Shown: piece after piece, positions 40,084 through 61,668 of the stretch
Layout: each line of letters begins with the position of its first letter
Position numbering within the stretch: the first letter of the stretch is position 1
DNA from: Dudresnaya verticillata
Taxonomy: Eukaryota
Assembly: GCA_977862235.1 (NCBI GenBank)
Contig: OZ374563.1
Span: 1,302,001 to 1,366,000 of the forward strand
DNA length: 64,000 nt
Direction of reading: 5' to 3'
Notes under the pieces: generated by a model
Databases searched by the model: none
Told to the model about the DNA's origin: nothing
What the model saw: the letters and a program-made list of their open reading frames with translations, nothing else
Translations under genes and position numbers: made by a program

Positions 40084-40097
40084 CGACCCCCTCCGAA
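40084..40097 (-). other. Polypurine-tract-like sequence of element A
   Basis: Minus-strand TTCGGAGGGGGTCG lies immediately before the TGTAGTGCC start of the 3' LTR. Confidence 0.65.
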
Positions 40098-40546
40098 AAC
40101 GCAAACACGTCAACCTGCTTCAGCCTGCCTGCCTTCCCGCGTCTGCGTCTCTTCCAGTGCCGATCGTGTCGGTCACCCGCGTCTTCGCGCCTGCGTTTGC
40201 CCTCCCTTGGCGTTGGTTGAGCCCCGTCAAAGACGCACGTTCAGTTGTCCACCCGCCGTCGGCGCAGCAACAACTCCCGTCGAAGACGTGTTGTTGACTA
40301 ACTTCGCCAGTGGCGTGCGTGAAACCCCGTCGTTGACGTCGTATCTTGTGCACGCGTGCGTGCGCTCATCGCCTAGGGCGTTTCTTTGAGGTCCGCCTTC
40401 GGCGTTGTTCAGTCCAGCGTCGTTGACGTGTGCCGTGTTTGCTTCCGCCTTTGGCGTAGTTGACTCTACTGCGGAGTCCGAGACCGTCGTTGACGTATCG
40501 TGTGAAGTCCGCCAGTGGCGTGTGATTACTCAACGTCTCAGACGTA

Positions 40547-42852
40547 ATGGCGCAGTTCAATGGCCTGCAAGTGGCTGCGTCTTCGGCGGCGCCGGTGTAT
40601 CCGTCCCCCTTCGACTTCGTCGGGAGGACGCCCCGCAACGATGCGCGATTATTCTCGCGGGCCCCCTGTTTCGACCAGGAGGCCCTGCGACACGAGGATC
40701 TCATCACCCATTACGCTGTGAGCGGATTTTTGCCAGGGGGGTTGCCCCTGGCCGTCGTGTGGACGAACGAGTGGCGCCACCGGTGCGCCATTCCGCGGGG
40801 TTGTCTGCGTATTGCCGCTGGCCAGACGCGTGCAGATGCACATGCGCGTTTCGTCGTTGACGTGTATCGGCGGTTTACCCGCTATCCGGGGTCGGTATTG
40901 ACGCCCACCGTCTTTGAATTTGACGCAGGGCAGTACCGCACAAATGGCGAGGTGGGCTATGGAGACCGTCTTGGGACGTTGTCGTTAAGCCATGTGGCTG
41001 TTTCGGCTGAGCCGCGGGTGCTTCAGGAGGCTAACCTCCTTGGTGTACGCTTGAAAGCGGATTTCCGATACTTGCATCGGACGGGTACCTTCTATTGGGA
41101 GCGCTGCGTCCGTTGGGAGTGCGAAACGCGCCGCCGCAAAGGCGTTTTTGCACCGTACCAAGATACGCAGGTCGATCGCATTGAGCGGGAAAAGTTGCCG
41201 CATTGCTTCATTCGCGTCCCGCCGATGTGGCGGGACTTGAGGTCTGCGAGGGCTTTGCGGCTGAATTGCCTCCGTGTGTCACGTATATTGACTCCGAGTT
41301 GCGGATGGATCCGTACTCCCGATGTTGGATCGTATTTTTCACCGAGTGGGTCGTCAACGTAACTTACGCATGGATGTGGGAGGTGTATGACACCTTCCGG
41401 CTCTATTATGTGCCGCCACGCGTAGTCAGCCTCCTTGGTGGGCTTGACTTGACCGAAGTGCTGGGTGGTGCCAGGAACTGCCAAGAGTTCTGGGATTTAC
41501 GCCATGTGGCGGATAACGTCAACTGGGACGACCCGGTAGCTGTGCCGCCGGGAAACCGGCGCCGTAAGGCAAACCGTCCGCGTTACGCGATGAGTAGGAA
41601 TCATTCCGCCTGTGGCGATTGGGTATGGTACAACCCGTGGACCAAACGTCTTACGACGGAGAACATCGCTGAGAGTCATCGTCGAACGGACCGCTTCACG
41701 CCAGCGAATCACCCACGTGGGTTGCGCAAGAATTGCGACTTTGCGGGGGATTTCCCACCCCACTTGAGCGCCTTGATGGCGGAGGAGGATGCGTTTCACG
41801 CTAACAGCGGACCGGTTAACCCGTCTGGGACGGACGTCGTTACGCCTATGGCGGTTGAGCTTGCTGCGGGGGCGTCAGCTCCCGCGACGATTTCGCCAGC
41901 GGCGGTAGGGCCGTCGGCTGTGGTGCCTGTTGGCTTGCCGTCGGTTGCGCCATTGGATCTCTCGGCGCCCGTCAATGACGGTGATGGTGATGCCATCATG
42001 GCTGCGCCCCTGGCGAGTTCTGCGTCTGCAGCTACGCCTCAAGGCGGAGTTTATAACGTCGCTGACGATGCGAACCGCCGTCCTGCAGTGCCAGAATGGA
42101 CTGAGGAGCAGCGCTGCACGGTGCTCGCATTCTTGCGGGCCACCGGTGTCATCACTGACGGGTCGGGCGGGTCATCCACGACGCCCCTCGGGCACTCGCT
42201 GCTTGCTGCTCTGCAGCCCAGCGTTTCTGCGGTCCCGGCGTCGGCCGTCGTTGCGACTGTGCCGTCTAACGACGAAGGTGCGGCGTCTAATGACGGAGTG
42301 GCGAAAAAGCCGTTGTCGCCTAAGGCGGGTTGTGCGGGTTCGTCCGCCATTGCGTCCACTGACGTTGTTAACAAAAGTCCGCCAAAGGCGAGTGCGGTGG
42401 CAGCGCCTACGGCGGCTTCGCAGGCTCCAGTGGCCTCTTCGTCGGTGACGGATGTTGATCGTTCAACGCCTTTGGCGGTTAATGCGGTCCCGTCACCGGA
42501 GGTGCCGGGGCCGTCGACTTCGCCCAAGGCGGTTGAGGATGCTCCGCCACCAAAGGCGAGTGAGCTTCCTGGTGTAGCGCCTGAGGCGGATAATGACTCT
42601 AACGTTGCGCCTATGGCGGTTGACGAACAGTCGTCGCCTAAGACGGGTTGTGGGACAGGTGCGTCGCCAGCGGCGGATGTCGCGACTTCGACAGCAGTGG
42701 TTGTGGCGGGTCCCTTGCGGTCCATTCCTGCCCCTGCTGCGAGCGTACCGTCGGTGACGGAGGACGACCTCTATGAAGAGGCGTTAAGAGAGTCCGCCAA
42801 TGGCGTTGGGGATGATGCCCCACTTGAGCCGTCTGCGACGAAAAAGGCGTAG
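40547..42852 (+). pseudogene. Antisense accessory ORF of element A, unknown family, with one frameshift near 41230
   Basis: ORFs 40547-41362 and 41203-42852 joined at CFIRVPPMW/GLEVCEGF align colinearly with 57093-58820. Confidence 0.85.
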
Positions 42853-44056
42853 CCTTTGTTAGATCGTTAAGAACGGTTAGCGAACGCGCGAGCGCGTGTG
42901 GTGTCGCTTTGCCTGCCCCGTGGTGGGGCGGCGAGCGAGGGATTCATACGTCATAGACGGTTAGTGCCGCGTCTCACGACGTAGGTCGTAGTGGAAGGTC
43001 ATGCGGGCACGGGGGTTACCCTCGCTTGTGAAGCCCGAATAAACTTGACCGTTATCCAACGTAGTTACTTATGTGTCCGCTTGATGTAGAGCGCTGCGAT
43101 AGCGAGCAGTAGGTAGCCGACGGTTCCCGTTCGTATAGACGTTGTTTTTGTCTGTCCGCTGTAGTAGCGTTTGCGTAAAAGCTTGGGGCGGTGCCGCCTT
43201 GATGGCTTTTTTCTCTTTCCTTGATGCCGCTACAGTAGCGTAAACCCTTTTGGGAGGGTCCATTTTCTCATGCCGACTTAGTCGTTTTGTTCCAATTGTG
43301 GTTCCGCTTGTTGAGCGAATATGTAGTTGGGGAGCCGTTTGTCGGTAGGCTTTTCGTCTTTGACGTAGAGCATGTTGGGTTAGCGTCGGGGACGGTTAGC
43401 TTGGCGACGTGCCGCGCGTGGGGCGCGTTTCTTGCGACTCCTGGGCGTGGATGCCGCGCCCAGCGGCGGAGTCATTTTTGCGATTAGCGCGTCGTGCACG
43501 AAACGTAGCCCAACTCCGTCTTCGACGACTGCTTCTTCTCTCGTGTTCGCGGGCGACCCCTTTTTCGACTTGAGACACGTCGTTGACGTTCGCGGGCGTC
43601 ACCCTCGAGGCGGTTGCGTGCGCCGCCCGTAAGGGTGGCGAGTTTCGGACTTGGCCGTGGGTGGCGCGCCTGGGCGAGGACGTCGGAGACGGTCGGTCGG
43701 GTCCGTGCTCGGGTGCCTCGTGGGCGTTCGTAGTGCTGGGCACACGCTTGTCAGGTTCTCGTTTGTTGGGTGCCGCCGCCTGGCTGGTGCCTTCGCGTTA
43801 TTATTTTCACATTAAATTTTTCCATTTCGTTTGTTGCCCGATTTCGTGTGGTGCGTGCGCCCTCCACCCCTCCTGACTACTGTCAGCCGTCCTGTCCTTA
43901 CGGACCCCCTCCGAAGAGGGTTGCCTATTCGCGTGTCGCCAACCCAATCGTCCTTGATCCGGTTGATTACACCCCCCGTCGTTCGTAACGAGTGCACGTC
44001 TGCTGCACTTTGTATGTGGCATGTGTTGTCGCTTCCAGCGTCCACTCTGACTAGGG

Positions 44057-44257
44057 TTACCCGCGTTGCGCGTCGTCGATGTTTGGCGGCAGGCGCGTGT
44101 GCTTCTGACGGTGATACCATACGACGTGCGATCGCGGTAAACTGGACACTGGTTCCCAGGTATTCGCTGAAGCGGGGTATCCAAACCACTTGACGCGGTA
44201 GAGGATCTCGCCGTCTTCTGCGTGTGCGTGCGACTCAACCCGTTCGATAACGTACTC
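44057..44257 (-). pseudogene. Chromodomain at the C-terminus of element A integrase
   Basis: EYVIERVESH..ILYRVKWFGYPASANTWEPVSSLP. It is now separated from the integrase by a stop at 44647 and a frame change. Confidence 0.85.
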
Positions 44258-44646
44258 CGTCGCGCTTGTAGCGGTCGACGTGGGCTCCTGCCGTGCTAAC
44301 GCCTGGGCGGTTCACTTGGTTGCGTGATGGGCGTCTGCACCGGTTCTGCAAACCGTACTCGACGAGTCGATCGCCTAAGGCGCTGGGTCGGTGCCCCGAG
44401 CGCTTGCGTAGCGGGTTGTGGTTCGTCGCTTTTGCGTACTGGTTCCTCGCTTCTAGCGGCGTCCTTTGCGTTAGCGCGGTCTTCCTCATCGTCAGTCGAT
44501 GCGCTCGAAGCGGGACCTACATTGGTAACCGGCGAAGCCGAGGTTGCGTGTCCCATTCGTGTGCGGATGCCTGGACCCTCCTCCTCGTCGGAGACGGATT
44601 GCGATACACCGTCGTCGGGGTTAGCGGCGAAGGGCGAGAGCTCTGC

Positions 44647-47600
44647 TCACCCGCGGCTGCGCGGCGTTGCATTCAGTCGCTCTTGCGAGTCGTCCGTGCT
44701 TCGCGGTGTCTCTGTGCCTCCTGCCGGGTCCGCCTGCGGCGTGTCTGGGTTTCCTGCTCCTTCGTCAGTTGACGTGGGGGTAGTGGGTCCCGGTACGTGA
44801 GGTGGCCCCGGTGGTTGCACGGTTGCGGGGGCGGTGTGCCCTGGTGGGGTTGGCGCCCATACCACGCGGTCCCGGGATAAACGCTCGCGTTCCCCGCGTC
44901 CCTTGTCGACGGTGACTGTCCCTTTGTCGACGTGAGTGACTCGATACGGTCCATCCGCCACTGGCGCGAGCTTGTGCTTGCGCTCTGAGCGATCGGTACT
45001 CCCGCCCCGGGCGAAGTATTCCTTCCGCACGAATGCAAAGTCGCCCACAGCGATGTTCTCCTTCGATTTCCGCAGACGAGTGTCGAAGTTCCGTTCGTAA
45101 CGCGCCTGCGTTTTCGCGAGCGACGCTTTAGCGGTTCCCATCAATGCGGACAGCCAGGTTCGCCATTTGGTGTAGTACTGTCCGGCAGTGGGCACGCTTT
45201 CGAGCGACGGTTCCGCTTCCAGCGACAATGGCCGCGGGGGCTTAGATAGCACCAGCTCGAATGGATCGAAGTTGGTGGACGAGTGCAGTTGCGTATTGTA
45301 CGCGAACGTCAGAGCATCGGTGAACAAATCCCAGTCCCTGGGGTGGTCTGCTACGTAGTGACGCAGGGAGGCGAGGATGGTTCGATTGAATCGTTCGACT
45401 TGGCCGTTACACTGCGGATGGTACGTAGTAGTGACGAGATTCTCCACCCCTAAGATGCGGCAGACGTCCTGGAACAACTTGGCTACAAATTGCGGCCCAT
45501 TGTCGGACAGCAGCTTCTTGGGTGGGCCATACACCAGCACCCAGTGTCGAACAAACGCTTGAGCGATTTCCAATGCCGTAATCTTACGTAGGGGCACCTT
45601 CCGGACCAGCTTCGAGAAGCGGTCTACGATGACGAGTAGAAACTTATTCCCCCGCTTAGTGCGTATGCGCTCCCTCAGTATATCGATGGACACAAACTCG
45701 AGAGGCTCGGTTGCTGGGAATAGTTTAATCTCCTTCACGTTCTTTCGCATCAGTACCCGGTTCCTCGCGCAAGTAACGCAGTTGCGGACGGTCGCGTAAC
45801 AATCCACCGACATAGACGGCCAATAATACTCACGTCGAAGCGTATGGTATAGCTTCCGTCCTCCGGGATGTCCTGCTAATTTAGCATGATGCCGGAGATG
45901 GAGCAATCGAACGCGTAACGCGGATGGTACAACGACTTGGGGTCGGGCCTCGACGGTCCGAACCAATAGTCCTTGTTCGTCCGTTGCAAACGGTAGGTTG
46001 TCCCCATCATCCAGACGTTTCCGGATCTCGGAACAGTAGGGGTCACGGCTCTGAACGTGCACCAACTCTTCATGCGTCAATTGACGGAGGAGCACTTCGT
46101 CCGCCGGTGGCGCGTTGGTAACCAACATCTGGTCATACTCCTCGAAGTCTCGTTCGGAGAAATCGACTTCGCCCTTGGCGCTTGACGTATCGCTTTCGGC
46201 GTGAGCGTAGCCGTCTGTAGTGCAACGATATTGCCCCTTTTCGTGTTACCACGTGATCAGCGCGTTACTCGCGAAGGTTTACACACGTGTGTTCGTTAGG
46301 TAGCACACGTGGCCACGCCGGCCCACTTCGGACGCGCGCAGCCCATTCTGGGCCTGCCCGCGCGCGCTCCTATTACTTACATTTCCCTTTACAGTAGTCG
46401 ACGCTCAGTGTACACTAGGTACACTGAGGTGTCAGTGTTAGTTTATTGTAGGTAGTGTATGGTAGCCCTAGCTATCCTACAGCCGTGGCCAGGGACTTAA
46501 GGCGAGTAGCGCCGGCCACCCTCAGTAAACCAACCCCCAAGCATGGGCTCTGCAGCTGAGTTCCCCCGCGCCTGAACCACGAGCTCGTTGCTCGGCGTCA
46601 CCGCGGGCTAAGGCTAGCGCAACCCGTGCCAACCGCCTGCCCGACGCTCCCTACGCGCACCTCCCTGCTGCTCCTCCCCGCGCCGCGCTCGGCTCCCTTC
46701 ATTTCCCCCGTTTCTACCTCTCCAGCACACCCCTTCCGGTCCTCCCCTTATCCCTTCATCCTCCCTTCACCTTTGGCGTCTACGCCCCTTCACTGGTGTT
46801 TACACCTACTGTTGGCGTCCACGCCCACACACAACCCGACGGTGTTTACAGTCTGCCGCCGGATTGCTTCCTAGCTCTACCACTGCGTTTACGCGATACT
46901 CACGCGTGATCGCGCAGCTACCCTCCCGAGCCCGAACTCTCGGGGGTGCTCTACAGCCGCGTACGGCCATTGCACCACACCGTCTTCCGACGAGTGATCC
47001 TCGTCTTTGACGCAACTTCCGTGGTAACACGGGATATCATCGTCGATCGGTTCGACCGTTTCGCCGTTCGTCTGTAGACGTGAGAGGGCATCTGCCTGAG
47101 TATTCAGGTATCCCTTTTTATACTTCACGACGAAGTCGAACTCAGAGAGGCGAAGACGCCATCTCATTAACCGTCCCGAGGGGTCGCTGATTTCCATTAG
47201 ACACCTCAATGACGAATGGTCCGTATGGACTACGAAGGACTCCATCTGAAGGTACGGTCGCAACGTCGTGATGGACCAGACTACTGCTAGGCATTCCTTT
47301 TCGGATACCGAGTAGTTGCGCTCCGGAGCGGTTAACGAGCGTGACCAGAAGCCAAGCGGCTTCCGTTCGCCGTCAGGTTGCGTTTGGAAGAGTGCGCAGC
47401 CAACTTGGTATTCGCTCGCGTCGCAATCAATGGAGTACGGGAGTCCTTGTTTTGGCAACGCCAGGATGGGCGGGTAAGTCACCGCTTCGACAAGCGTGCG
47501 GAATGCCCGAGCCTGCTCCTCGGTGAACGGTTGTAACCGGAATTCTTGCTCTTTCCTCAACAACTTGTTGAGGGGAGCGGCGACGTGCGCGTATCGCGAT

Positions 47601-49575
47601 ACAAACCGTCTGTAGACGTTGCACAATCCGAGAAAGCTCCGTAATTCCTTCTGGTCCCGCGGATGCTTGGCTTCGCGTAACGCGGCTGTGACCGTACGGT
47701 CTACTTCCAATCGTCCCGGACGTATCACATGGCCTAAATAGTTGACGGTCGGGGTGAAGAAGTCGCACTTGGTCAACTTCAATGTCACCCCGGCCCGATG
47801 CAAGGTCGAAAGGATCTCGTCAACATGACGGAAGTGACTGTCACTATCGTTCGAGAAGATGATCACATCGTCAAGGTAGACGAGGCATGAGCGCCACTTA
47901 TAACCAGCAAGCAGGATATCGAGGGTCCGTTGAAACGTGGCTAGGGCGTTAGTAAGTCCGAAGGGCATACGCTTGTAGCGGAATAATCCGGCATGGCACG
48001 TGAACGCCGTCTTGTCGCGATCTCGCGGATTGATGGGCACCTGCCAGTAACCATTATTGCAGTCTAGGGTAGTGAAGACGTTCGCTTCCCCTAGACTGTC
48101 AATACATTCGTCGATTCGCGGGAGGGGGTACATATCCCGTACCGTTACTGCGTTCAAGCGACGGTAGTCAACGCAGAAGCGGAGTGTACCGTCCTTCTTG
48201 GGAGCAAAGACGACCGGTGACGCCCATGGCGATTGTGCGGGTTCGATAACCCCCTGACGCAACATGCGATCAACCTCCGCTTGAGCGAGTTGCCTTTGCT
48301 TGGGGCCAGCGCGGTAAGGCGGGGATGAAATCGGCCTGGAGCCGGGGAGCAAGTCAATATAGTGCTCCGTGGTTGCGATTTCTCCTAACGAACCGTCCCA
48401 CATCGACGAGTACCTGCGCAGCATCTCCTTCACCCGTCCTTGATGTTTGGCTGAGAGATGACTCAGGTCCAACTCGTCCACTGGCGGAGGTTTAGCTACA
48501 GTTGCTTCGATCGACTTAGCGAATGTATCCGGCTGCGCCGTCACCCCATCGTTCGTTTGAAAACGGAAATCTTGATTCGCTTCCTCCTCCTTTGCCTGCT
48601 CCTCGGTGATACCTAGGACATCGGCCAGACTTATGTGACTGGGGAACACTGCTGTGGGATGTGGCAACGCGGTGGCGACGACTTGTCCTTTGACGAGCGC
48701 TTGCGGGCGCGGGGAGAAATTTGCGACGAGAATCCGGAACACTCTCAGCGGCTCTACTTGAGCGACTCCGTTAGTAACGGCCAAAGCTTGCCGATCATAT
48801 AACGTTCCAAATGGTTGGATGGTAATGACCCCTGCTCGCTCGGTCGTTACCGAGATCCACTTTTGCGCCTGCGGCGGGATGATCGTTCGTTCCGCAACGC
48901 GTATTTTGGGCGACGTTCGCCCTTCGGCCGTGCCGTACTCTTGTTCCGTTGGCAACGGGGGGTACGACGGAGGCCGGCGCAGCGGGCGGCGCGTTATAGG
49001 GACACGGGTCCCGTCGTCGAGCTCAATCTCGCGACTCCGCGGATAAATCGCTTCGACGAAGCGGTCGCAAAAGTCGTAACCGAGTATAACCGGCGCAGCG
49101 AGCCGTTCGCAGACGATCAACTCCAACTTGACGACCCTTCGTCCGAGACGTACGACTAAGTCGATAGTGCCCCGGGTCTGAATCGCATTGTTGTTAGCGT
49201 CTGATATGACGGGGAGACTCTTAGATACGATCCGTGATCGCGCTTCTAGCGGAATATCGTCAATACGGATGAAATTCGGACCAGCCCCCGTGTCGAGGAC
49301 AGTGAGTTTACGTGCCAAGGTACCTACAGTTACGCCTAGATCGGCGTACACTTTGTAGTTCCTTTTGGCCATTACGAACAACTGTCCCCGGGCTTGTGGG
49401 GGCTGGCACCTACGCCAGGGGCGCTTCAAGGACGTCTGTGACGAGTCTACCCGCCCATCGGCGTATTTGTTAACTAAGTTCGGGCCCTCCTTCCGTGTCA
49501 GCACCCGAGGCGGGAGCCTCTCTGCTTGGTGCGACACCCCAGTGTCAGGAGTTGGTACCCTCCTTAGTTTTTCGC
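44647..49575 (-). pseudogene. pol: pol of element A (protease, RT, RNase H, integrase), interrupted by a solo LTR
   Basis: LDTGAG, YLDD, CDAS, HH-CC zinc finger, SDNG..GQVERFN and GPY. Removing 46216-46984 restores the frame (..SSEDGYAHAES..DQMLVTN). Confidence 0.93.
46216..46979 (+). mobile_element. Solo LTR inserted in pol of element A
   Basis: Termini TGTAGTGCAA..TTGCACCACA; TSD CCGTC at 46211-46215 and 46980-46984. Orientation is inferred from the shared CCGAGCCC(C)GAACT motif near its right end. Confidence 0.9.
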
Positions 49576-52122
49576 CTGTGGCGGTTGTAGCGGCGCTGTG
49601 TAGCGATTAACCACCGTCGGATGACGCTCCGCTGCATGCGGCATAGGTCCGCCTCGTGGCGACGGCGGGCGCGCTGTACGGCGTGCTGCTTCGCGCGCAG
49701 CGCGTTCCTTGTACCGATTGTACGCATCGGCGGGGACCCCCGCCTTCTCGGCGTCTCTTAAGCCTTCGTAGTTGGCGATCGCTTTCATATACTCGCTCAT
49801 GCGGAGGAAGCAGTCCGGTGCGATGTGTCCACGGGCATAACACTGATGACAGATCAACTGTCTGCGAGCGTCTTGACGGAGCGGGCCCCTGTCTTGCCAA
49901 CCTGGCCTCGCCCGATGGACGTGGGGGGCATACTCCGAATACGGGACGCGTGGCGCGGGCACGACGGAATGCCCAAAGGCGAGTGCAGGATTCATTGCCT
50001 CTGTGTCCTCGTCTTCGACGTAGCTGTCCGTTGGTAACGCTGAAGTTGGCACTGATGCTTGTTCGTCAGCCAAATAGAGATCGCCATCGGCGTGTGTTTC
50101 CATATCGTCCGCATGACGGGTGACATCACGGAACTCAACGGAGGACTCCGCTATCATAGCGCGCGCGGTAGGTTTCGTGCCCCTCGTCTGCTGACGTAGA
50201 ACCGTTCGGTTGCCGCCAATGGCGGGGCGCAATGCGCGAGCGGCTTGGGCCGGGGCCAATATATCCCGTCTGACTGACGTCGAGGCGGCTCTGCCGTGTC
50301 TTGCGCGTTGCGCGTCACCTTCTTCCTGCGCGAAGTGGACTAAACGTTCAAAAGATAACTCCGCCCTCGGCGTTTCTTCGCGGAAGCGGGCCACTAAGGA
50401 CCTGATCGTCGGGTCTAACCCATCGATGTACAGTGTCATCTTTTCCCATTCGGCATAAACGTTACCGCAACGAATGCATGCGCCGGCGAGTCTCATGCCG
50501 TAAGTCGTTTCGTCTTCGCCCTGCTTCTGACTAGTTGACCACAGGGCGAGGACAGCGTCTCGAATCGCCGAAGGCGTGGCATACGTGCGGAGTAGGTAGT
50601 GCACCGCCTCCGGGTACGATGATACGCCGCCGCGGTGGCGGGAGGATGTCGATTTGACGGAGCGGAATTGCGTGGCTGCCGTGCCCTTTAAGAAGTACGG
50701 CAGCGCGACGAACGCTTGTGCTTCGCTCATCTCTAGCGTGTCCGCTTCATCCGCGAACCGCGTTAAGAATTCGAGGACCATGACGGGGTCGCTGCCGTTG
50801 AAGGCGGCGTCCTTCATCGTTAACTCGAGTCGCTTGATATGGTCTTTGACCTTCCCGGTTTCGCGACCGGAGCGCTTCTGTCCTACGTCTTGGAGACGGT
50901 ATGTGCGGTACGATAGTAACTAGTCGAAGAGAGGATTGGAGGGGCTCAGCTCCTTCAGTCCCTTGTATCGCTTTCCGCGGGGTCGCATTGCACTGCCGTG
51001 AGCCACGTAGTCGTCATCGTCCGACGACGAAGAGTCTGTTGACCCGCCGTCACTAGACGTGTCTGAAGAGGATGAGGATGAGTCCCCTCGTCGGCGACGG
51101 TTCTTCTTCCGTCCATGACGCGACTTGCGGCGTTTCTTGCCCCGTATCTTGCGATCTTTGCGTCGTCGACGGTCTTCTTCGGAACTATCGTCGTCGGACG
51201 GCGGCCCTTGGCGCCATTTGGCGGTTTCCAGTCGCTCTAAGCGGGTTGCCAATTGTTGAAAACGTTCGCGTGAATTCAGTTCCGACTGGGACTGGACCGT
51301 CAACGCCGTTGGCTGCTGAGCATCTACCCCTTGGTTGGGGTTCGTCATTAGACGGTCGAGGTCGGAACGGAGTCCTTGAAGGGTACCGTCCCGATCTTCT
51401 TCCAACGTCTGTAGACGGCTGAAGATACTTCCGACATTGTCGTCGAGCATCTCCGCGAATCGAGCGAGTAAGTTACCGTCTTCGGCGACGCATACTTCCC
51501 GAATCCGCTCGCGAGGTATCGTGAGATTACCAACGCGAGCGGATGCTGGGGACGCCATTGGCGGTGTGTGCGCGGGGGTCGACGCCTGCGGCGGACCTCC
51601 CGTGCTGCGCGGTTGCGCTAACGGCCTGGCCGGTGAACACCCGGCACTGCCGTGGGGTGAGGGACAACAGCCCCTTGGGATTGGTGATTCGTCTACGACG
51701 TCGCGCCCTGCAGGGCGTCTTTGGTCGTCTTCGACGGGTATGGTTGGTTGGTGGACCGGAACTTCCGGCTGTTCTTCGACGATGTCGGCTTGGGCTCCGT
51801 CCTCGACGGGTCGCTGTTCGGCTTGTACCTTGTCAGCGGAATCCACGTGCGAGTGGTAGGTTCGGAGGGCCGATTCGTTGGGAACGGTGGTGCGGACGAC
51901 GACGGGTATCGGCGGGGGAGGTATTTCTCCCCTGTTGAGCGATATATGGGAGTGGTCGTGGCCTGGACCGGTCGGGAAGGCCGATGCGATCTCGGGGCTC
52001 ACGAGGCGCCCAGACCTCGTTGTCATCGGCTGTAGCGACCGCTCCGACGCGGGGACACTGCCCGGCGTCGATGACGGTCTTCTTGAACTGGGGCCTCGCG
52101 ACGGCGGCGGTCGTGAGGCCAT
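49564..52122 (-). pseudogene. gag: gag of element A with one in-frame TAG (50920-50922)
   Basis: The two ORFs are in the same frame. Capsid-like FNGSDPVMVLEFL..EAVHYLLRTYA and zinc knuckle CHQCYARGHIAPDC. Confidence 0.88.
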
Positions 52123-52229
52123 AATGCAGTCGTAGAGTTGCCTGAACGTCGTGGACGATTATCGATGGACGTCTAGAGACGGAAAGTCGGACGTCGCACG
52201 ACGGAGTAACTCGTTGAAACGTAGCACAC

Positions 52230-52247
52230 TTCTAGGTCGGGAGACCA
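52230..52247 (-). other. Primer-binding site of element A (tRNA-Tyr-like)
   Basis: TGGTCTCCCGACCTAGAA begins 2 nt inside the 5' LTR boundary. Confidence 0.75.
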
Positions 52248-52249
52248 GT

Positions 52250-53162
52250 TGTAGTGCAAAGCGTCTTTGACGGACACTGCCGAGCAGTTCGGGGCTCGGT
52301 GGTAGCGACGCCTGCGGCGATGAGTGGCCTCGCCGTGGGCGTCTGGTGGTAGAGCGGTTGACTCGCCTTGGGCGGACTGTAAACGCCCTTGGCGGAAAAG
52401 AAGAACAAAAGGAAACAGAGAAAGGAACACGTCAAGGACGATGGTAGACGTGGAAGAACGGGAGGTAGACGCTTAGCCGTAGGCAGCGGTAGGGTACGCG
52501 CGTGCTGAACGGGGAAGTCTGGACCAAGGCCGGCTTACCGGGGTTTACTGTGACGTCTGAGACGGATCAACTAAGTACAGGATTACCTAGCGGCGGCGAC
52601 GCGGATGTACGCGTAACGCGGGAACTCGGGACACGTGTTGTCCCGAGGCGCGTCTGACAGATCCGTCCGTCATGCAGCCGCGCTCCTGACAGATCACGCG
52701 TAGTTCCCCGCGCGAGTCCTTACACCTACACGTGGATCCTTTCCTTACAGCCGCGCGCGCGCCTCATGGCGCGAGCGATCTCGATCCATACCGATCCGGA
52801 TCCAGTCCGGATTCGGGCCAGCGATGCGGATGCGCCAGGCTTACAGGCGCGTGCCTTACACCCCTTAATCCCGATGTGGGATCCCGATGTGGGATCCCGA
52901 TTGGATCCGGATTCGGGCCACGCTTACAGCGAACGTTCCCGCCACTGCGCCACGCGCGCACGCGTGGCGCCGTACAGTGGCCGGGTTCAGGCGTGCGGTC
53001 TGCACGCCCAGCGAGCCGTTCTGGGCCAAGTGGCCAGGGGCATGCGTCGGTGACGTGTTTGCGCCGCGGGCGGGTTGAGCGCGCCGTTGGCGGTCGTCCG
53101 TCGGTAGACGCTGCATATCAACGCTTGAAAGCGAAAACGGGGGGACCCCCCCTGGCACTACA
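52250..53162 (-). repeat. 5' LTR of element A (913 bp)
   Basis: Termini TGTAGTGCAA..GGCACTACA. By eye it differs from the 3' LTR by about 7 substitutions and a 13-bp duplication (ATCCCGATGTGGG). Confidence 0.95.
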
Positions 53163-53367
53163 TTGCCTCCACATGACGGTTTCTCTGTGCGAGCTGGGTG
53201 GCGCCGCCCCTTTTCCCCCTTTTCCCCTTTTCGCTTAGGCTCTGTGCCTTTCAAAGACTCTACCATTCCCTTTTCCCGAGCTACCTCAGCTAGTGTGTTG
53301 TGCATCGTCAGGACAGCTGTCCTTGCCGGCTGGCGGGTTTCTGCCTTGACGGGCAATACTACTACAG

Positions 53368-53388
53368 TGGTCTCCCGATCTAGAATCG
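53368..53388 (+). other. Primer-binding site of element B (tRNA-Tyr-like)
   Basis: TGGTCTCCCGATCTAGAATCG, 1 nt after the LTR end CA. The complement reads as a tRNA T-loop, stem and ACCA end. Confidence 0.78.
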
Positions 53389-53873
53389 TTTTCAGGGTCG
53401 GCCCCTTCTTACTACCTCATCCGCAAGTCGTCGTTCGGACCTTCCCACGGGACGAGAATTCCCCGTGCAAGAATTCAAGGAACTACTTCCTGAGGGTGAA
53501 ATCCTAGTCGGCCAAGTGTCGACGGTTTCTCAGCTTCACATCAAGCTTCGAAGTTGCGTTAAATTCGAGGCAAGCAACTGCCACCGCTTCTGCGGTTTTT
53601 AATCGTGTACAAGGAACAAGATCCTGGTCGTGGAGTGACGCCCCTTCAAGGAACTCTTCCTGCAGGTTATCGTAATACCTGTCATCAAAAATACGTCTGA
53701 ATACGGGCTGTGCGGGCGCGCGCGTTGGGAGTTCCTCGCGGACAGAATCGCCCGTAACCCCGAGAACTACGGTTCTGAGAAGTTTGCCATCCTAGGGAGA
53801 AGTTCCCCGATTAGTGCAACCACAGGACCGAATCCTACGTTTTAAGGTTGTCGATAACAACCTCGTTTAGAAG

Positions 53874-56175
53874 ATGCCGACATCTAACGGTGAAACCACC
53901 CGCCCAGGCTTAACAAGCCGGGGTGGTAGCCGTACCGGCAGCTTATCCTCCGTGAGGACCACGGGAGCAAGAACCCGTGCTGTAATAGCCGCTTTGGCTC
54001 AAGGTCCTACAGTAGGAGAAGTGGAACGCCCGCCCCGAAATGCGGGCGCACCAGGAGACGAAGACCCGTCTGCCCATGGAAAGGGACAGATCCGTGAAGG
54101 AGAAAATACGGCCCGGACTGCAGCCGCAAGCACCGCCAACACCGGTGCGAATGAGGGTCCGGACCCTAGTATGCTGCCACCGCCGATGCTTCAAGCTGGT
54201 TACAGCCAGCACGACACAAGCGGACTGGCCTTAGAAGAAAAAACGACTTCATCGCTTCCACCCGATATCGGAATGCCGATGAGAACGAAGGCAAACTCAA
54301 GCGACCAACGGTGCTTTACGGAGCGTGAAATTGGTCACTTGGTTGAGACCGGCATCGAGAAGGCTCTCGGCACTAGCGTATTGGCGCTGCTTGAAAGCCA
54401 AGCGGATGAAACCCTCACACGGGTGAAACGCTATTTCGACGACGCCACCGCGCGTCGAGACGACCAGCTACTGGCTAAGTGCCAAGAAATGGTCAATTCT
54501 CGTTGCCAACAACGCCCCCTGAGGGGTTTAGAAGAGGAAAGGGTCGAGACCCTACAAGCCCAAGTGGACTCAATGGGGGACCAGTTGGAATCGGTTCATC
54601 TTGAATTAGATGAAGCCACGAAAGCTGCCGACCTTTCCAGGACAGAAGCCGCAATGGCTATTGTGGACGTTCAATTTAACGTGGACAACGCACGGTGCGT
54701 TGAACAGGACAGAGCCATCGAGGTCCAAAGGAAAGAACTCGATGAGGAGAAGCGTCGTGTCGCTTTTCTGGAATTGTAGATGCGGCGCGTAATCCGCGAG
54801 AGAGATAATATCCCTGAAGGCATGAGACGGCGCTCACCAGTGCCTCGCGGTACGCGCGACTGGCGTAGGAGGCTACCCCATAGGGGTTCGGACAGTGGGT
54901 CCCAAGGTGAAGGAGATGGAGGCCGTTGCCAACAGGGTTGCAAGTGCACGAGACCAATTGGGTCTTCTGCACACCGCGACCAAGTTGATTCTCATCGTGA
55001 CAGATATTCAAGCCATCGTCACGAGGAGAATCCTCGGTCAGGGTCTCACCCTAATCCGGGTCCCTCGGATGAAGAAGGACCGGGTTCCCGTTCGCATTCT
55101 AGACCGCCATGGTCTTCCTGGAGGGGTCCCCGACGTTCCGGTGTTAAGGAGCTGACTCCTAGGAATCCTGCCTTCATACAGGTGCTGTCCTATAGAAGGT
55201 ATAGGTTATTGAACCTGGATGATTACCGCGGGCCCGAGGTGACCGAGGCGACCACGAAGAAAATCAAACGTGTCAAGTCCGTTATGCGGAGTCGCCGTTT
55301 TGACAGGAGTGACCCGGTGTCCATTATTGGCTTCTTAGCCACGCTTAAGAGGCAGCTCGATCAAGCCCATATCAGCGAAGGTGCCGCTATCCTCGTCATC
55401 CCCGAGTTCCTCGAGAAGGATGCGAAGGATATATTTGAAGCGAATTTTGACGCTGCGGGTGACGACAATGGTGGTTTCATCGAATGGCCCGAAGCCGTGA
55501 ATTACCTTCTTCGGACATATGCCAAGGACGTCTATATTGAGAGGATTGCCTCTGAGATGGACACCATGGCGCAGGAGCCAGATGAGGACGAAGTAACCTT
55601 TTCGAGAAGGTTGCAAAACAAAGCGCGTCGAGTCGCTGGGGTGTACACCGAACAAGGCTTGATAACCAGGTTTATTCGGGGGTTGTTACCAGCGGTGAAG
55701 CCGCTTTTAAGTACGTCGTCATTGGACCCAAGGACGGCCAGACTGGCGGATTACGTCGAGCTTGCGACGGCACAGGGAGATTCCCATCGGGCACTAGTGG
55801 GTGGCGGACGAACGCCAAAAGCGAATAGGACGCTACCAAGGAAGACCTTAAAGAAGGTTCGTACCCACAAGTCAGGGCGGGCGCTCCTAATTCGCCAGGC
55901 AAAGGATGCATCCGCCTCCGATTCGGATACTTCAAAGAGCAGCGGCTCTGATGCGAAAAGTGAAGACGCAGTCGTAGCTGCCATCGCTAACGAAGCGCCA
56001 CCATCAACGGCGACCCAATCGGATTCGTGGTAGACACAGTATTACTACGACCAACCGTATCCCGGTGAAGCTGATGCGGTACTGCAGAACTACAGTAATA
56101 GGCTCCCAGCCTGGGCACAGCCAACCAGACTCAACGCCCTGGGTAGGTGACGGTTGAAGACCAACCCAATGATAT
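53874..56175 (+). pseudogene. gag: Decayed gag of element B, truncated by element C just before the zinc knuckle
   Basis: KELTPRNPAFIQVLSYRRYRL, FDRSDPVSIIGFL and EAVNYLLRTYA are homologous to A gag. Stops occur at 54777, 56031 and further downstream. Confidence 0.82.
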
Positions 56176-56950
56176 TGTGGTGCAATCCACTCGGTAGAAT
56201 TGAGGGTGCACCTCAGGCGGTTCGGGGGCCTGGCGGTAGCAGGTGAGGTAGTAGCGGTAGAGCAGGGGAGTAGCCCCGTAGTGCGACTGTAAAACACTAT
56301 AAGGCCGAGAAAGGGGGTTACCCTAGAAAGGAAGAGAAAAAAAGGGAAAAACAAGAGAAAAACAGGATTCTGTACGATGAAGAAGGGTAGCGGATGTACT
56401 GGAGTCCAGCCTAGAGAGGGAGTCGATAGGGTAGGAGGGTACGTCTCGCTGGGCCCAAACTTAGCCGTTTATTGTATGGGGGCGCACCTCAGGGCCCTAA
56501 TATACTATGTAGGAGGCGGGTGCGCCTTGGTGGCAGATTAAGGTAGGGGAAGGGGGCGCGCCACTTGGCATTACGTGGCAAGCGCAATTCTATAATTATC
56601 TAAAAATATCAACTGTCAGCCTAGCGGTAGTGCGGCTGAAAGGTGTGCGCCAAGGGGGCGCACGTGTGCACGTGTACGCGTTGTCGCGTTGCGGGGCCAT
56701 CCTTGCTAGCAGAGGGCGCCGCGTACTGTCAGGCCGGGTGCCTTACAGAGGCATTTCCCCATTAGCATTGCTGGTGCGTGCGCGTGGTGCCAGAGCTCAT
56801 TATAGAAATTGGCTCTGAGCTCAATCACCCGCACAGCGGTTGATCCGCAGGAACCGGCCGTTGGGCGTCCGTCGTCCGCAGTCGCGTAAGCCGCGGGTGG
56901 CGGCATTATGAAGAATTCTTCAGTAGGGCGCCAAGGCGATTTGCGCCACA
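56176..56950 (-). repeat. 3' LTR of element C (775 bp)
   Basis: Termini TGTGGTGCAA..TTGCGCCACA; preceded on the minus strand by PPT GGGGGGAGA (56951-56959). Predicted TSD GATAT. Confidence 0.8.
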
Positions 56951-57092
56951 TCTCCCCCCGTTAAGCGGCGAGTACCCGCACGAGCCCACAGGGACCACTT
57001 CCTTCTTCAGGCGTAAGTTGGCACGACGCCTCGCCATTTCATCTTGCGGGGGTCCGCTCATCGTGTGTGCACAGCGAAGCGGACGTGTTGCG

Positions 57093-58820
57093 ATGCCTCC
57101 CCACTTTTCTCTTGCGGAACTTGACCGCGTGTTACTGCACGCGCCGCAGAGTTCTGCAAGTTATCCGACGCCGGCCGACTTCGAGGGCAAGACGCCGTGG
57201 AACGACTTAATCGACTTTGCGAATGCACCGTGGATGTTCCACTCTAACTTTGGCAATCATGCCCTGATTGAGCAATATGTCTCGAATGATGGTTACTTAC
57301 CTGGGGGACTTCCCCTCCGCGTCCTCCGTACGCCTGACTGGCGTCGTCATGGTGCGATTCGGCCGGAGTGGATCCGTCGCCATGGTGGCGAGGACGTCCG
57401 CAAAGCGCGACTGCGGTATGTCCGCTTGGTTCTGCAGCGATTGTCGCGTACACCGGGTCGAGAGGTTATTCCTCATGGATACTGGTTGGATTTGGGTGTG
57501 TATCGCACCAATGGGGAAATCCCCTATGCGGACGCCCTCGAGAACCTCCCCATCCCGCACGCGTGGGACGGGGTGGAGCCGCGGGTTCGTCAGTCGGCGC
57601 TGCTGATGGGCGTACAGCTCCGTGCGGAATTCCGCTTCATACGCAAGCGGGCGAACAACGCGTATTGGGATAAGATCAGGTGGGAGCGGCACGTCCGCTC
57701 CCGTCTGGGATTCCTGGTCCCATATCCAAATGTCGAGATCGACGCGATTCACCGCAACTATCGAGATCGATGTTATATTCGGCTGCCAGTCCCGCAATGG
57801 GGACTGGTGGGGATCTGTGAGGGATTCCTCGTGGAGTTGTCGCCTGCGGTGAGTTACACCATGTCGTCGGTCATCGGCTACCCGCAATCCGGGTTGTGGA
57901 CCGTCTACTACACGGAATTCGTGGCGAAAACGGCGACTCAGTGGCTGTGGGAACTTTACGACACGTACCGCATGTGGTACGTGTCGCCCACAGTCCTGGG
58001 GTGCTTTGACCAGTTGGACTTCAAGGTGGTTCTTGGCGGCGTTAATAATGAAGCGGAGTTCCGCGTATTGTTGGGGTTCTTCTCCCAGATCGACTGGGAC
58101 CGCGACGAACAGCGCGTCCCGTTGTGTAACAACAAGAGGAGTTCCTCGGCTACGAACTTTTCGCCTGGGCGTCGGCATCCCGTGTGTGGCGATTGGGCGT
58201 GGTTCGACCCATGGACGCGCACATTTGTTTCTGCGGACCGTGCCGCTTGGTTGCGCAGCCATCCGCGTTCGATGCCACCGGGGCAGCCGCGAGGCTACCT
58301 GGTGGATCCCGAAGCGGTTGGGGTACCAGAGTCGGACGACGAGGAGTATTTCTCGGGTTTAGGTGACAATGGGGAGTTCCCCGAGGACGATACGATGACG
58401 GTTGATGAGCCGGTGGGGGAAGACTGCCCAGCCGTGGCATCGCCGACTACCGCGGATGCCCCGGTTGCGGCGATGGGAGTGGCGGCTGACGCGGGTGGGA
58501 GCAGCGGCGGCGGCGCTGTTATTGCGAGCGTGCCAATCGTTCGGCCGCCCGCTATTCGGCCGCCGTCACCTGACCCGGAAAGCCAGCCTCGCGCACGTCG
58601 CGTGCGACTGAGCTTCAGTCAGCGCATTGCCGTAATCGGCTTTTTGCGTAGAACGGGAATTCCCGAGATTGCCATTGGCGGCAGTGATGAGGAGCTCTCG
58701 AGGTTGCCGTGGGTAAAGGGCATAACCCGGATGGCGAGGATGAAGCAGGCCCAAGCGGGCCTGCTGATGTCTAGTCGAGCGTCGACATTTGGCGTGGGGC
58801 AACCGACCCTGTGGGAGTAG
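57093..58820 (+). CDS. Antisense accessory ORF of element C, intact, ~575 aa, unknown family
   Basis: ATG at 57093; Trp/Tyr/Arg-rich domain homologous to 40547-42852. Confidence 0.85.
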   Translation: MPPHFSLAELDRVLLHAPQSSASYPTPADFEGKTPWNDLIDFANAPWMFHSNFGNHALIEQYVSNDGYLPGGLPLRVLRTPDWRRHGAIRPEWIRRHGGEDVRKARLRYVRLVLQRLSRTPGREVIPHGYWLDLGVYRTNGEIPYADALENLPIPHAWDGVEPRVRQSALLMGVQLRAEFRFIRKRANNAYWDKIRWERHVRSRLGFLVPYPNVEIDAIHRNYRDRCYIRLPVPQWGLVGICEGFLVELSPAVSYTMSSVIGYPQSGLWTVYYTEFVAKTATQWLWELYDTYRMWYVSPTVLGCFDQLDFKVVLGGVNNEAEFRVLLGFFSQIDWDRDEQRVPLCNNKRSSSATNFSPGRRHPVCGDWAWFDPWTRTFVSADRAAWLRSHPRSMPPGQPRGYLVDPEAVGVPESDDEEYFSGLGDNGEFPEDDTMTVDEPVGEDCPAVASPTTADAPVAAMGVAADAGGSSGGGAVIASVPIVRPPAIRPPSPDPESQPRARRVRLSFSQRIAVIGFLRRTGIPEIAIGGSDEELSRLPWVKGITRMARMKQAQAGLLMSSRASTFGVGQPTLWE

Positions 58821-60611
58821 CCCATGCGCTGTAGTAGGGAGAGCGCCGCCATGATCAGGACTTATTAAAGTTTGTGCCTGTTGGTTGTGTTGTTTGCCGT
58901 AACGCGGCGCGTCGCTCTTGGGGGAGTTTCCCTCGGCGAGTGGTAATGCGTAGCGACTCGTGTAGGCATATGCCGATTGCGGACGACGAACGCGATATGT
59001 CGCCAGTGAGGCGCATGCTGTTCAGTGTGGAAGTCCACATTTCGTTAGCGACTTGGACGGAGGGGTTCCCCCGTCGCTAGAGGTGCGAACGCTCAAGGCC
59101 GTTGGCGGCTTAGAGCGGTAGGTACGGATTTCCGTTTTGGGCATGGCTCGTAATGCCGACTTAGTCGTGAACGACTTGGCGGAGGAGGTGCGGCGTGCTT
59201 GCGGTCGTCCGCTAGGGTGGGCCGCTGTGTGTACGCATGGCAGGTGATTGGTGCGGATTGCGCCGGCACCGTAATTATCCAATGGATATTCATGGAGTGG
59301 CACGCCGCACGTGACTTGAATGCCCACTGCGGCGCGTACAGTAGACCAAACGCGTACTGTGATCTAGCCACATTAATTGGCTATACAGAAGTCTGTTGAC
59401 GAGCGTGCTTGCCTACGTTGCATGCTGACCCGGCTAACCGGACGCAGTTGCGTACGCGCCTCTCTGAGTAGTTAGGCGATAGGGCGATCCAGCCCGTCTA
59501 GATAAGTGGAATGCCACGCGAACAATGGCCTGCCCACTGTAGGAGCGCCGAAGGGCTTGGGCGCGGATTTTCGGTTGTGTGGAATACCACTTGTCTCGAA
59601 CGTTTCCGGAGGTAGGTGCCGCATGGGCACACGCAGGCGGAGGTACACCCTTATCGTTGAGTCAGGGGTACACCAGTCCGCCAGTGGCCCGCGGTGAGTG
59701 TTCACGGAATTCCGTTTCAGCATAGTTGCTGTTATAGAGTCTGCCGTAGGCAATGGGGAGGTGGCTACAGTAGTTGGCTATGACCTTTGTAGGGGTGTTC
59801 CCCATTTGTTGGTCATAAAAGGGATTTCGTGGGGCACCATATCGTAGTGAGGTAGGGGGCATCGCGTCGGGTCCGATACGTGCGCCCCATGATGTGGCAT
59901 TCCACTTTTCGTATGCGGCCTAGGTGAAGGAATCCCCTTTCAAATGGGGGAGCCGATGCCTGAGGCAATCGACGATACACGGTAGGGGTTACCGAATCCC
60001 ATGTGAGGCATAATTGCCTTTGGATTTGCGGGCCCATTCGTGACGGTATCGGCCGATGATTACGGAGTTCCGTTATAAGCATGAGTGCTCTTGGCAGAAT
60101 CCGCCGTGGACGGCTTTGGCGGCAGCTGTGAGTGAAAAGGAATATGGAGAGGTTGGAGTTGAACAAGATGAGAAATGGAAGTCGCTTGACTTCGTTTACT
60201 GCAGTCGACCATCCGACAAGGCTTATATCAGCTTTTCGGATGAGTTGCTGCGTGAACACAAACAAAACAAATCATTAAAGAAACGCCCAAAATCCCTATC
60301 ATCAAATGGGCGGGAAAAAGTAAAGCAATTAAATCTACCAAATCATACTCTCAGCACACTCACATCCGCCACCAAAATGGGCGGGAACTTGCACACCAGT
60401 GTTGCTAACTGCTGACATCAGCAATCCCTCTTGCGACCGCATTTCCTGCCATCCATATGTACTCCAACTTTGGGCGGGAACTCGAAAGTATCGAGTGTCC
60501 CCGCATGGCTGCTGTCGGACAACACTGCACACCACGTGGCCGCACTTACGAGCTCAAGTCCGTCCATGAATATCCAACTTGGATCATTGACCACGTAATC
60601 ACCCAGATTTG

Positions 60612-60693
60612 CCTACGTGGCAGCTGTAAACCAACGTGTCGGCCGCACGACACCTACGTGGCAACTGTAAACCAACGTGTCGGTCGCACGACA
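60612..60693. repeat. 41-bp tandem repeat, 2 copies
   Basis: CCTACGTGGCA(G/A)CTGTAAACCAACGTGTCGG(C/T)CGCACGACA x2. Confidence 0.85.
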
Positions 60694-61668
60694 ACTGCAT
60701 CTGCTGATATCACAAGCCAGGCTCCACGTAGCGCAAGTCCCTGCAGTACCAACTCAGACGCCATCAGCACATTGCATGGCACGTTCATGTGTACTCGTGG
60801 AGTACAGTGCGCGTCATACCAGTACCATTCCATGCCATACCACGTGCATTCATGTGGTCCAATCAGATCGTTCCACTTGGCCGTTCCTGTTATAACCGCC
60901 AATTCCAGCACAACACTTGTAAGCCATATAGACCATGGAGGCGGTTTGTAAGAACCAATCAGAAGCCCGTTTCACGTTGCTTTTGCAAAAGGCCTAAATG
61001 CGCCGTGATTTTGGAAGCCCGGAAAAAGGGCTGTCGTCTCCGGAAGCTTTGGTGAAAGCGTGCCAGGGTACCATCTGGGGTACCTGACCCGTGACGTGAG
61101 GTGCCAGCGACCATGTCCTCAACAGTGAGGCGTACTGCGCCGACTGCGCTGTGCTACAGTCCGTGCAGGGGTGTTCCCTATTTGCGTTTGCCGACAAGGG
61201 CGTTGTGGGGCGCCTCATATGAGCGGGGTCGGGAGCGTTGCGTTGTTTTTGGACGCGAGTGTCCCGTGTTGCGGAATTCCGCTTTTCGTGTGCAACCTGA
61301 GTCGCGGCGTTCCCCTTCGTATGGGAGAGCGGGCGCTCAAGGCCATTGATGGCTTGGAGCAGTAGTTACGGAATTCCGTTTTGTGTTTGCTCGCGTTATG
61401 GACTTAGTCGCATTCGACTTCGGGAGTGGTAATGGCGATAGCTTGCGGCAGACCGCTAGGGTGAGCGGGCGCGCGTAGGCAATATCCGATTGGCGCTGCG
61501 ATAATTAATATCTCGTCCGACGAATAAGGTGCCATACCGTGGTGTACAGTAGTCCCATTGTACTTGCGCCAACTACTGTAGCATCGACTCTTGGGCCCGA
61601 CTCTTCAATGTGGTATGTCCACTCTATTTGTGAGTTAGCAGACGTCTGCACGCTTGCTGTCTTGGGGT

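Follow-up and report, generated by a model that had tools for sequence, protein, structure and literature searches.

A conserved antisense gene and family-specific mini inverted repeats in nested LTR retrotransposons of the red alga Dudresnaya verticillata

The stretch of Dudresnaya verticillata DNA analyzed here (64,000 nucleotides of contig OZ374563.1; hereafter, the window) contains two long terminal repeat (LTR) retrotransposons, elements A and C, each of which carries an extra gene, on the strand opposite to its gag and pol genes, next to the 3' LTR. This antisense gene belongs to a new protein family in an already known architectural slot, and the elements are pervaded by an undescribed element-wide code of short inverted repeats, novelty being stated here with Repbase outside the scope and with the PAG1 protein of red-algal transposons compared by description. 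A full-text search of the literature, whose scope excluded Repbase and most subscription journals, returned no paper describing the protein or, for LTR elements of red algae, repeats of this kind. The initial annotation of this DNA had proposed an undescribed accessory protein, of which proposal the lack of a known domain, the action of selection, and the distinctness from env all stood, whereas the novelty holds within the limits just given, the sequence of PAG1 included. To judge from its sequence, the antisense product is very probably a selected accessory protein. What that protein would do is a more tentative matter: the reading that we prefer, by analogy with the VANC protein of VANDAL transposons and with somewhat less than even confidence, is a self-recognition in which the protein would read the repeats of its own family and keep that family active against silencing.

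The antisense gene in elements A and C

The features on which this account depends are the following, the A-type repeats being the inverted repeats of element A described below and iE standing for the independent E-value.

40084..40546, plus strand: polypurine tract (PPT) of A and leader of the antisense gene; A-type repeats are densest here (12 in 463 bp)
40547..41362, plus strand: antisense gene of A, 5' piece; core profile positions 3-227, iE 2e-67
41185..42852, plus strand: antisense gene of A, 3' piece; remainder of the core, then a low-complexity tail (18 A-type repeats) and the helical motif (42097-42222)
43270..43285, no strand assigned: 16-mer ATGCCGACTTAGTCGT, A copy; a CGAC-N3-GTCG repeat, 417 bp past the antisense stop
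57093..58820, plus strand: antisense gene of C; intact, 575 amino acids (aa), with core 15-405 (iE 9e-139), linker, and helical motif at 58611-58736
59153..59168, no strand assigned: 16-mer ATGCCGACTTAGTCGT, C copy; identical to the A copy, 332 bp past the antisense stop

In agreement with the initial annotation, a plus-strand open reading frame (ORF) was present in both A and C between the minus-strand integrase and chromodomain and the 3' LTR. That the ORF was long in each element held for C, whose gene is intact, but not for A, in which a frameshift at about 41230-41245 leaves two pieces; and the start, which had been placed just inside the 3' LTR, is actually internal to it, by 463 bp in A and by 142 bp in C. 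The designation of both as chromodomain elements was likewise correct in part, since a chromodomain was found in each, though both are broken or out of the integrase frame. The two proteins align colinearly, each of the A pieces being 39% identical to C, one over 231 aa (E 1e-48) and the other over 161 aa (E 2e-35), and all the motifs named beforehand, together with the C-terminal FLRxTG helix, were found. The LTRs and spacers of A and C, as had been noticed, are not extensively alignable, the best common stretch being the identical 16-mer (E 0.003). This hairpin, which lies a few hundred bases past the antisense stop, is a candidate for a 3'-end signal or a shared binding signal. A looser third copy of that hairpin occurs at 61398-61411.

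The distinction from env was sustained by the antisense orientation and by the lack of a transmembrane stretch, the peak 19-residue hydropathy being 1.23 in C and 1.57 in the A 3' piece and ranging from 0.99 to 1.57 across six sequences of the family. The promoter of the gene, for which the initial annotation had proposed the 3' LTR, may, by analogy with maize Grande, sit in the leader. Two ORFs on the strand opposite to the antisense genes (42051-42770 and 57297-58358) were dismissed as genes because the codon-position pattern favors the plus-strand frame.

Selection on the antisense protein

Over 387 codon pairs, the antisense genes of A and C were identical at the first, second, and third codon positions in proportions of 0.56, 0.62, and 0.32, with a nonsynonymous divergence (dN) of 0.64 and a synonymous divergence (dS) of 2.46, the synonymous sites thus being near saturation. 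The corresponding proportions for the integrases were 0.75, 0.81, and 0.30, at 66% amino-acid identity, and the antisense gene diverges about 2.5 times faster than the integrase. Given that the cores of some 390 aa are still 39% identical while the synonymous sites are saturated, purifying selection must act on the protein; the supposition that it was under selection is accordingly upheld, the dN/dS ratio between A and C lying far below 1 rather than near it.

A large protein family

A phmmer search over 1.84 billion cluster representatives, with clusters formed at 50% identity, yielded 429 clusters at E ≤ 0.001, a number that falls to 181 at 1e-10 and to 59 at 1e-30, and of those 429 the top-scoring 150 were examined as rows; a word-index protein search reached 1, 2, and 11 proteins. 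Twenty clusters were looked up, of which 18 were unnamed and 2 were hypothetical proteins, so that a functional name was attached to none of the 20. The named homologs that we saw were exclusively red-algal, from Gracilariopsis chorda and Gracilaria domingensis, the latter being KAI0562882, a hypothetical protein. The four G. chorda members (PXF40140, PXF49255, PXF40362, and PXF47852) are nearly identical, fall into one 90% cluster, and lie on four scaffolds of different lengths, which distribution fits the expectation for a mobile gene. A quick tree grouped the A and C proteins with the family member P0002 (SH-aLRT 94).

In the architecture of the family, a variable N-terminal extension precedes the core of about 390 aa, which is followed by a low-complexity linker and, in many members, by a helical motif of 35–40 aa. 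Among 58 near-complete cores, taken from an 84-row alignment, the median identity was 30%. A pattern search recognized the C-terminal helical motif in 36 of 78 complete tails, A, C, and five near-copies of the member P0006 among them; a profile search added 4 of the 42 remaining tails, compared with 0 of 420 shuffled tails.

The homologs, too, presumably reside in retrotransposons. Homolog loci sought in metagenome, viral, and prokaryote contigs gave none that was confirmed, and integrase and reverse-transcriptase (RT) queries, intended as a control for hairpins in other Gypsy elements, found no loci. Since the genomic placement of the 429 homologs is presumptive, the gene might conceivably be a captured gene, or one of the host, carried along with no function for the element. 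We nevertheless hold that explanation to be extremely unlikely: the slot and the orientation are shared by two elements that have diverged to saturation at synonymous sites, the median identity among the cores resembles that of many mobile families rather than that of one host gene, and no functional name is attached to any of the 20 clusters looked up.

Structure of the core and of the C-terminal motif

The AlphaFold2 model of the core, built from the 84-row alignment over 410 residues, reached a predicted local distance difference test (pLDDT) of 93.5 and a predicted template-modeling score (pTM) of 0.91 and is mainly helical with long ordered loops. Foldseek returned nothing at E ≤ 0.001 against PDB and BFVD, while VIA-align of the undivided 410-residue model over 48,161 chains gave 6 rows with Z of at least 2, the best having Z 2.4 at a root-mean-square deviation (rmsd) of 3.8 over 89 aligned residues. 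By sequence, no Pfam family was consistently matched by the 84 members at E ≤ 10, and the weak matches to MBD (1 of 84), E3_binding and Rubredoxin (2 of 84), and Clp_N (2 of 24) were judged to be chance; for six proteins NCBIfam gave nothing beyond one tail match at E 0.053, the best hit in a PDB sequence search had E 0.35, and the ESM Atlas gave no usable match. The domain that the initial annotation had not recognized is thus without a characterized match in Pfam, NCBIfam, PDB, and BFVD. The predicted core is compatible with an undescribed fold, which compatibility, for an undivided model and the scope of PDB and BFVD, does not amount to proof.

Conservation falls on Trp, Tyr, Arg, Glu, Asp, Pro, and Gly residues, among which D133, R138, E142, E198, R199, R202, E240, Y255, and D367 are nearly invariant, and there is no conserved Cys/His set. 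Those near-invariant residues could be taken for an active site, the core then being an enzyme of unknown fold that would modify the DNA or chromatin of its own element, as would PAG2 and PAG3 of Plavaka, and such cargo does occur on red-algal transposons (bioRxiv 10.1101/2025.02.11.637652). We consider an enzyme very unlikely, however, in that neither sequence nor fold matched a methylase, SET domain, 2OG-oxygenase, glycosylase, or nuclease, the His/Cys set that would bind a metal is missing, and the charged residues may instead form structural salt bridges.

The C-terminal motif of 39 aa was modeled as helix–short helix–helix with a pLDDT of 90. Among the 50 matches listed for it, the top one was a TFIID chain (Z 4.2), and there were also the Rho-N domain 1a62 (Z 3.3; rmsd 2.7, 36 aligned) and the SAP domains 2do5 (Z 3.0; 2.6, 34) and 2do1 (Z 2.9; 2.5, 34). 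The motif had no significant sequence match, the Pfam result being Ish1 at E 0.047 in 1 of 24.

Family-specific mini inverted repeats

A dyad scan of element A gave 41 sites of CGCC-N3-GGCG, with 0.95 expected, and 37 of CGTC-N3-GACG, with 0.92 expected (E-values 4e-48 and 5e-42). These A-type repeats number 78 in A (13,079 bp), 9 in the solo LTR B of a related family, 3 in the host DNA (37,500 bp), and 0 in both C (7,026 bp) and the older element D (3,008 bp) into which A and C were inserted. Conversely, the C-type repeats—NNGG-N4/5-CCNN with the outer bases paired—number 54 in C, 21 in A, 7 in D, and 16 in the host DNA; many of these sites resemble the NF-kB sites GGRNNYYCC. For the dyad scan, the 4-pair hairpin counts, and the stem scan of D, the border of C was set 148 bp to the left of the final one.

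The A-type repeats are defined by pairing as much as by sequence: at the sites CG-x-C-N3-G-y-CG, the inner base x pairs with y in 92 of 101 instances (41 C-G, 37 T-A, 8 G-C, and 6 A-T), while the 78 A-type sites show 40 different loops. Their stems, moreover, shun extension, the outer pair being complementary in 7 of the 78 as opposed to the 26% expected (p 1e-4). An independent recognition of CGYC half-sites was rejected, the hybrids numbering 1 and 2 where the perfect sites number 41 and 37. The LTRs of A and B share 74% identity, and 12 of 17 CG-ended hairpins are retained between them, with loops and flanks altered.

The excess of hairpins is a property of all three elements. Those with 4 pairs and a 3–5-nt loop numbered, observed versus shuffled, 423 and 184 in A, 202 and 89 in C, and 77 and 37 in D, the strict-pair forms being enriched 2.1–2.3-fold, whereas in the host DNA they were barely enriched (489 versus 462, with a shuffle maximum of 473). 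Hairpins with one G-U pair on the genomic strand were not clearly enriched, the observed and expected counts being 108 and 135 in A, 73 and 68 in C, and 41 and 33 in D, and those with an A-C mismatch matched expectation in A and D. Against synonymous-codon shuffles, the 9 element coding segments were all in excess (z 1.8–8.5, two of them within the shuffle maximum), and the 5 host ORFs ranged from z -1.4 to 0.6, which excess within gag and pol indicates that the repeats are placed wherever the sequence is free. A-type repeats are densest in the antisense leader, at 25.9 per kb, followed by the antisense tail at 16.5 and the LTR at 11.0, with 4.4–7.5 per kb in gag and 0–2.9 in the conserved enzyme and core regions. 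The repeats are therefore under selection, differ from family to family, and are specified by their pairing together with their sequence. Element D, for its part, is rich in 5-bp stems with 3–5-nt loops (18 versus 2.9 for a loop of 4), a third geometry with no clear fixed sequence.

The strictness of the Watson–Crick pairing favors, without proving, a role at the level of DNA over one at the level of RNA. Under such an RNA role the protein would act on the element transcript, through a Rev-like export, chaperoning, or a shielding from RNA interference, and the hairpins would be RNA signals for the protein or for packaging by Gag. The hairpins do span the entire transcribed unit, coding parts included, the avoidance of stem extension would avert long double-stranded RNA, and analogies to retroviral accessory proteins have been proposed for the antisense ORFs of plants (PMC7264820). 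We regard the RNA role as rather improbable, nonetheless, because the genomic strand has no G-U excess next to the two-fold increase in strict pairs and because hairpins occupy both the U3 and the U5 of the LTR.

Alternatively, the repeats might be unconnected with the gene—arising from RT template switching, or bound by Gag, by integrase, or by some factor of the host—with the protein acting instead through protein contacts, for example as a helper in integration targeting or as an inhibitor of a host-defense protein. A templated copying predicts strict Watson–Crick stems on both strands, which prediction matches the data; the hairpins occur in all three of the elements A, C, and D; and the structure gave no positive sign of nucleic-acid binding. 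The fixed CG ends of A, the GG/CC of C, and the scarcity of longer stems nevertheless misfit an unselected templated mutation, and integration targeting is already served by the chromodomain, so that we consider this disconnection, too, improbable.

A proposed self-recognition

A family-specific pattern in cis that needs a reader, along with a soluble extra protein that evolves faster than the integrase, finds its simplest joint reading in self-recognition. Under that reading, antisense transcription would start in the LTR or the leader, and the product would be a nuclear, nucleic-acid-binding protein whose predicted new-fold core would bind the repeats of its own family, most likely as DNA hairpins or cruciforms. 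The SAP/HeH-like C-terminal helices might tether the protein to chromatin, and the binding of the repeats would lift the silencing imposed by the host on that family, as VANC does for VANDAL. The anti-silencing role that the initial annotation had named as one possibility thus gains some indirect support from the family-specific repeats, which that annotation had not noticed.

Several points weigh against this proposal. The link between the protein and the repeats is one that we infer, and the repeats could be read, or could have been brought about, by Gag, the integrase, the RT, or a host factor. Hairpins abound in element D as well, whose 3' end, where such a gene would be sought, lies beyond the window. 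The copy in A is frameshifted despite the 99.2% identity between the LTRs, which indicates that the gene can be done without in cis, at any rate once the element has inserted. The C-type pattern was selected post hoc, after the scan, from the same sequence; A-C mismatch hairpins, which would be G-U pairs in an antisense RNA, numbered 124 in C versus 105 expected, above the shuffle maximum of 123; and the covariation of the inner bases is one between different sites, no compensatory switch between CC/GG and TC/GA having been found at homologous sites of the A and B LTRs. The likeness of the C-terminal motif to SAP/HeH is weak, its Z of 2.9–3.3 being level with that of unrelated chains. Finally, in the available part of the VANC paper, the motifs are mainly non-coding and palindromes go unmentioned (PMC5735166), whereas the repeats here are palindromic and extend into coding DNA.

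The most far-reaching form of self-recognition—that red-algal Gypsy elements would possess, in an element-wide family barcode of 4-bp mini-hairpins and an opposite-strand reader of new fold, the first self-recognition and anti-silencing system of LTR retrotransposons, operating on DNA structure plus sequence—we put forward as a speculation that is unlikely to hold in full. Should the link between the protein and the repeats hold, retrotransposons would have an equivalent of VANC, in the form of a compact reader that is specific for sequence and structure and might be useful as a tool, and there would be a clue to the expansion of red-seaweed genomes by LTR elements. What the antisense genes in the slot between pol and the 3' LTR do is still debated in the literature (PMC7264820, PMC11963269), and for the present family there is a confident model, together with two candidate target motifs, each characteristic of a different element family. 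That mini inverted repeats of a family-specific kind extend over the whole element is, whatever reads them, a finding in its own right.

Anatomy of the nested elements

The rightmost 26 kb of the window are occupied by nested LTR retrotransposons, which adjoin long host ORFs, the Brr2 helicase among them. The nest (37600-64000) has four levels, A and C lying within D, and the solo LTR B within the 3' LTR of A. Its further features, with TSD denoting the target-site duplication, PBS the primer-binding site, and PR-RT-RH the protease, RT, and RNase H, are:

38278..40083, minus strand: 3' LTR of A; ends TGTAGTG...CACTACA, interrupted by solo LTR B
38726..39626, plus strand: inverted solo LTR B, from a related family, inside the 3' LTR of A; TSD ATCAC
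44060..44266, minus strand: chromodomain of A; PF00385 at E 7.2e-10, in a frame different from the integrase ORF
44647..49606, minus strand: pol of A; PF00078, PF17917, PF17921, and PF00665, with PR-RT-RH at 46889-49606, integrase at 44647-46245, and a break between
49564..52122, minus strand: gag of A; PF03732 at E 1.4e-4, interrupted by an in-frame stop
52250..53162, minus strand: 5' LTR of A; 913 bp, 10 A-type repeats, the PBS adjoining at about 52230-52248
53168..56175, plus strand: element D, the older element that received A and C; 5' LTR end, PBS at 53368, gag
56176..56950, minus strand: inferred 3' LTR of C, then PPT; terminal inverted ends TGTGGTGCAA ... TTTGCGCCACA
61635..63998, minus strand: integrase and chromodomain of C; chromodomain frameshifted, integrase 66% identical to that of A over 289 aa

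Element A is a complete minus-strand element, comprising LTR, PBS, gag, PR-RT-RH, integrase, chromodomain, and LTR, in which the order of gag, RT-RH, and integrase is that of Ty3/Gypsy; of these three, C has the integrase alone inside the window. The other hallmarks of Ty3/Gypsy are likewise found in A: two TG...CA LTRs, a TSD of 5 bp (TTGCC, at 38273 and 53163), a PBS, and a PPT. With B removed, the LTR pair of A has 893 matches, 7 mismatches, and 13 gap columns, so that 7 of 900 paired positions differ (99.2% identity), while B compared with the A LTR gives 643 matches and 222 mismatches. Despite the similarity of its LTRs, A bears the lesions already listed (gag stop, pol break, chromodomain out of frame, and antisense frameshift); its CpG observed/expected ratio is 1.2–1.4, CpG loss being absent.

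A was inserted in the 5' LTR region of D, and C in the gag of D. A and D have in common the PBS TGGTCTCCCGA, which resembles the end of a tRNA-Tyr. C is a minus-strand element of which the window holds the 3' part only, including a single LTR copy, and its 3' LTR was deduced from the terminal inverted ends plus the PPT; the match to its chromodomain, split by the frameshift, has an E of 0.0014, which falls short of the cut-off.

Between the antisense ORF and the integrase of C there is an insert of about 0.8 kb (~60200-61000), unrelated-looking and lower in GC, which contains a 41-bp tandem duplication (60612-60693), no A-type or C-type repeats, and an ORF with no Pfam match. The spacer of C (58990-61470) contains degenerate repeats, 59026-59222 resembling 61270-61466 (71%) and 59788-59953 resembling 61164-61330 (67%), which center on GGAATTCC-like sites. 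An Rfam scan of 37000-64000 gave 0 matches. In the host DNA (1-37500), TAC[A/T]GTA is enriched, with 20 occurrences versus 2.3 expected, clustering at 11490-11681 and in intergenic DNA and recurring in the spacers of the elements; and the host ORF 10436-11365 combines a ferredoxin-like 4Fe-4S domain with a metallo-beta-lactamase-fold domain.

Comparison with known systems

VANDAL is a Mutator-like DNA transposon, and the homology domain of its VANC protein is DUF1985, for which no Pfam match was found in the 84 members of the family. VANC, which has conserved and variable regions, binds a short motif present at high density and specific for the family, and thereby lifts silencing (PMC5735166). 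The likeness to the present elements resides in an element-encoded extra protein with conserved and variable parts, and in a dense, family-specific short motif on the element. No match in sequence or fold joins the two proteins, however, binding and demethylation have been demonstrated for VANC and would hold here by analogy, and the motifs of the present elements are spaced palindromes with covarying stems, found in coding DNA as well.

The Plavaka transposons of red algae carry the genes PAG1-3, of which PAG1 has no detectable domain and PAG3 has been proposed to bind the inverted repeats of its own element (bioRxiv 10.1101/2025.02.11.637652). Both systems involve mobile accessory genes of red-seaweed transposons, but PAG1-3 form a three-gene cassette on DNA transposons, whereas the family described here gave no ParB, 2OG, SET, or methylase match; with PAG1, the antisense protein was set side by side by description.

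The closest architectural parallel is with the Retand/Tat elements. Antisense ORFs of undetermined function occupy the slot between pol and the 3' LTR in Retand, Grande, RIRE2, and the fungal Boty (PMC7264820), that of maize Grande encoding a nuclear protein and having its own promoter upstream of the gene (PMC7264820), and that of Retand containing the domain TRP28 (PMC11963269). The antisense slot and the conservation across families are thus alike in Retand/Tat (TRP28, PF04195; Grande gene23; RIRE2) and in the present elements, and DNA binding has been proposed for the Retand/Tat products (PMC11963269, PMC7264820). The differences are that Transposase_28 (PF04195) was matched by 0 of 84 members at E ≤ 10, that in the available part of the Retand paper tandem arrays are reported and never hairpins (PMC11963269), and that the core here has about 390 aa. 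Retand, furthermore, is a non-chromovirus lineage of flowering plants, whereas the present elements bear chromodomains and the named homologs of their antisense protein are red-algal. A separate large family in the same slot, within a lineage far from the flowering plants, points to an independent recruitment.

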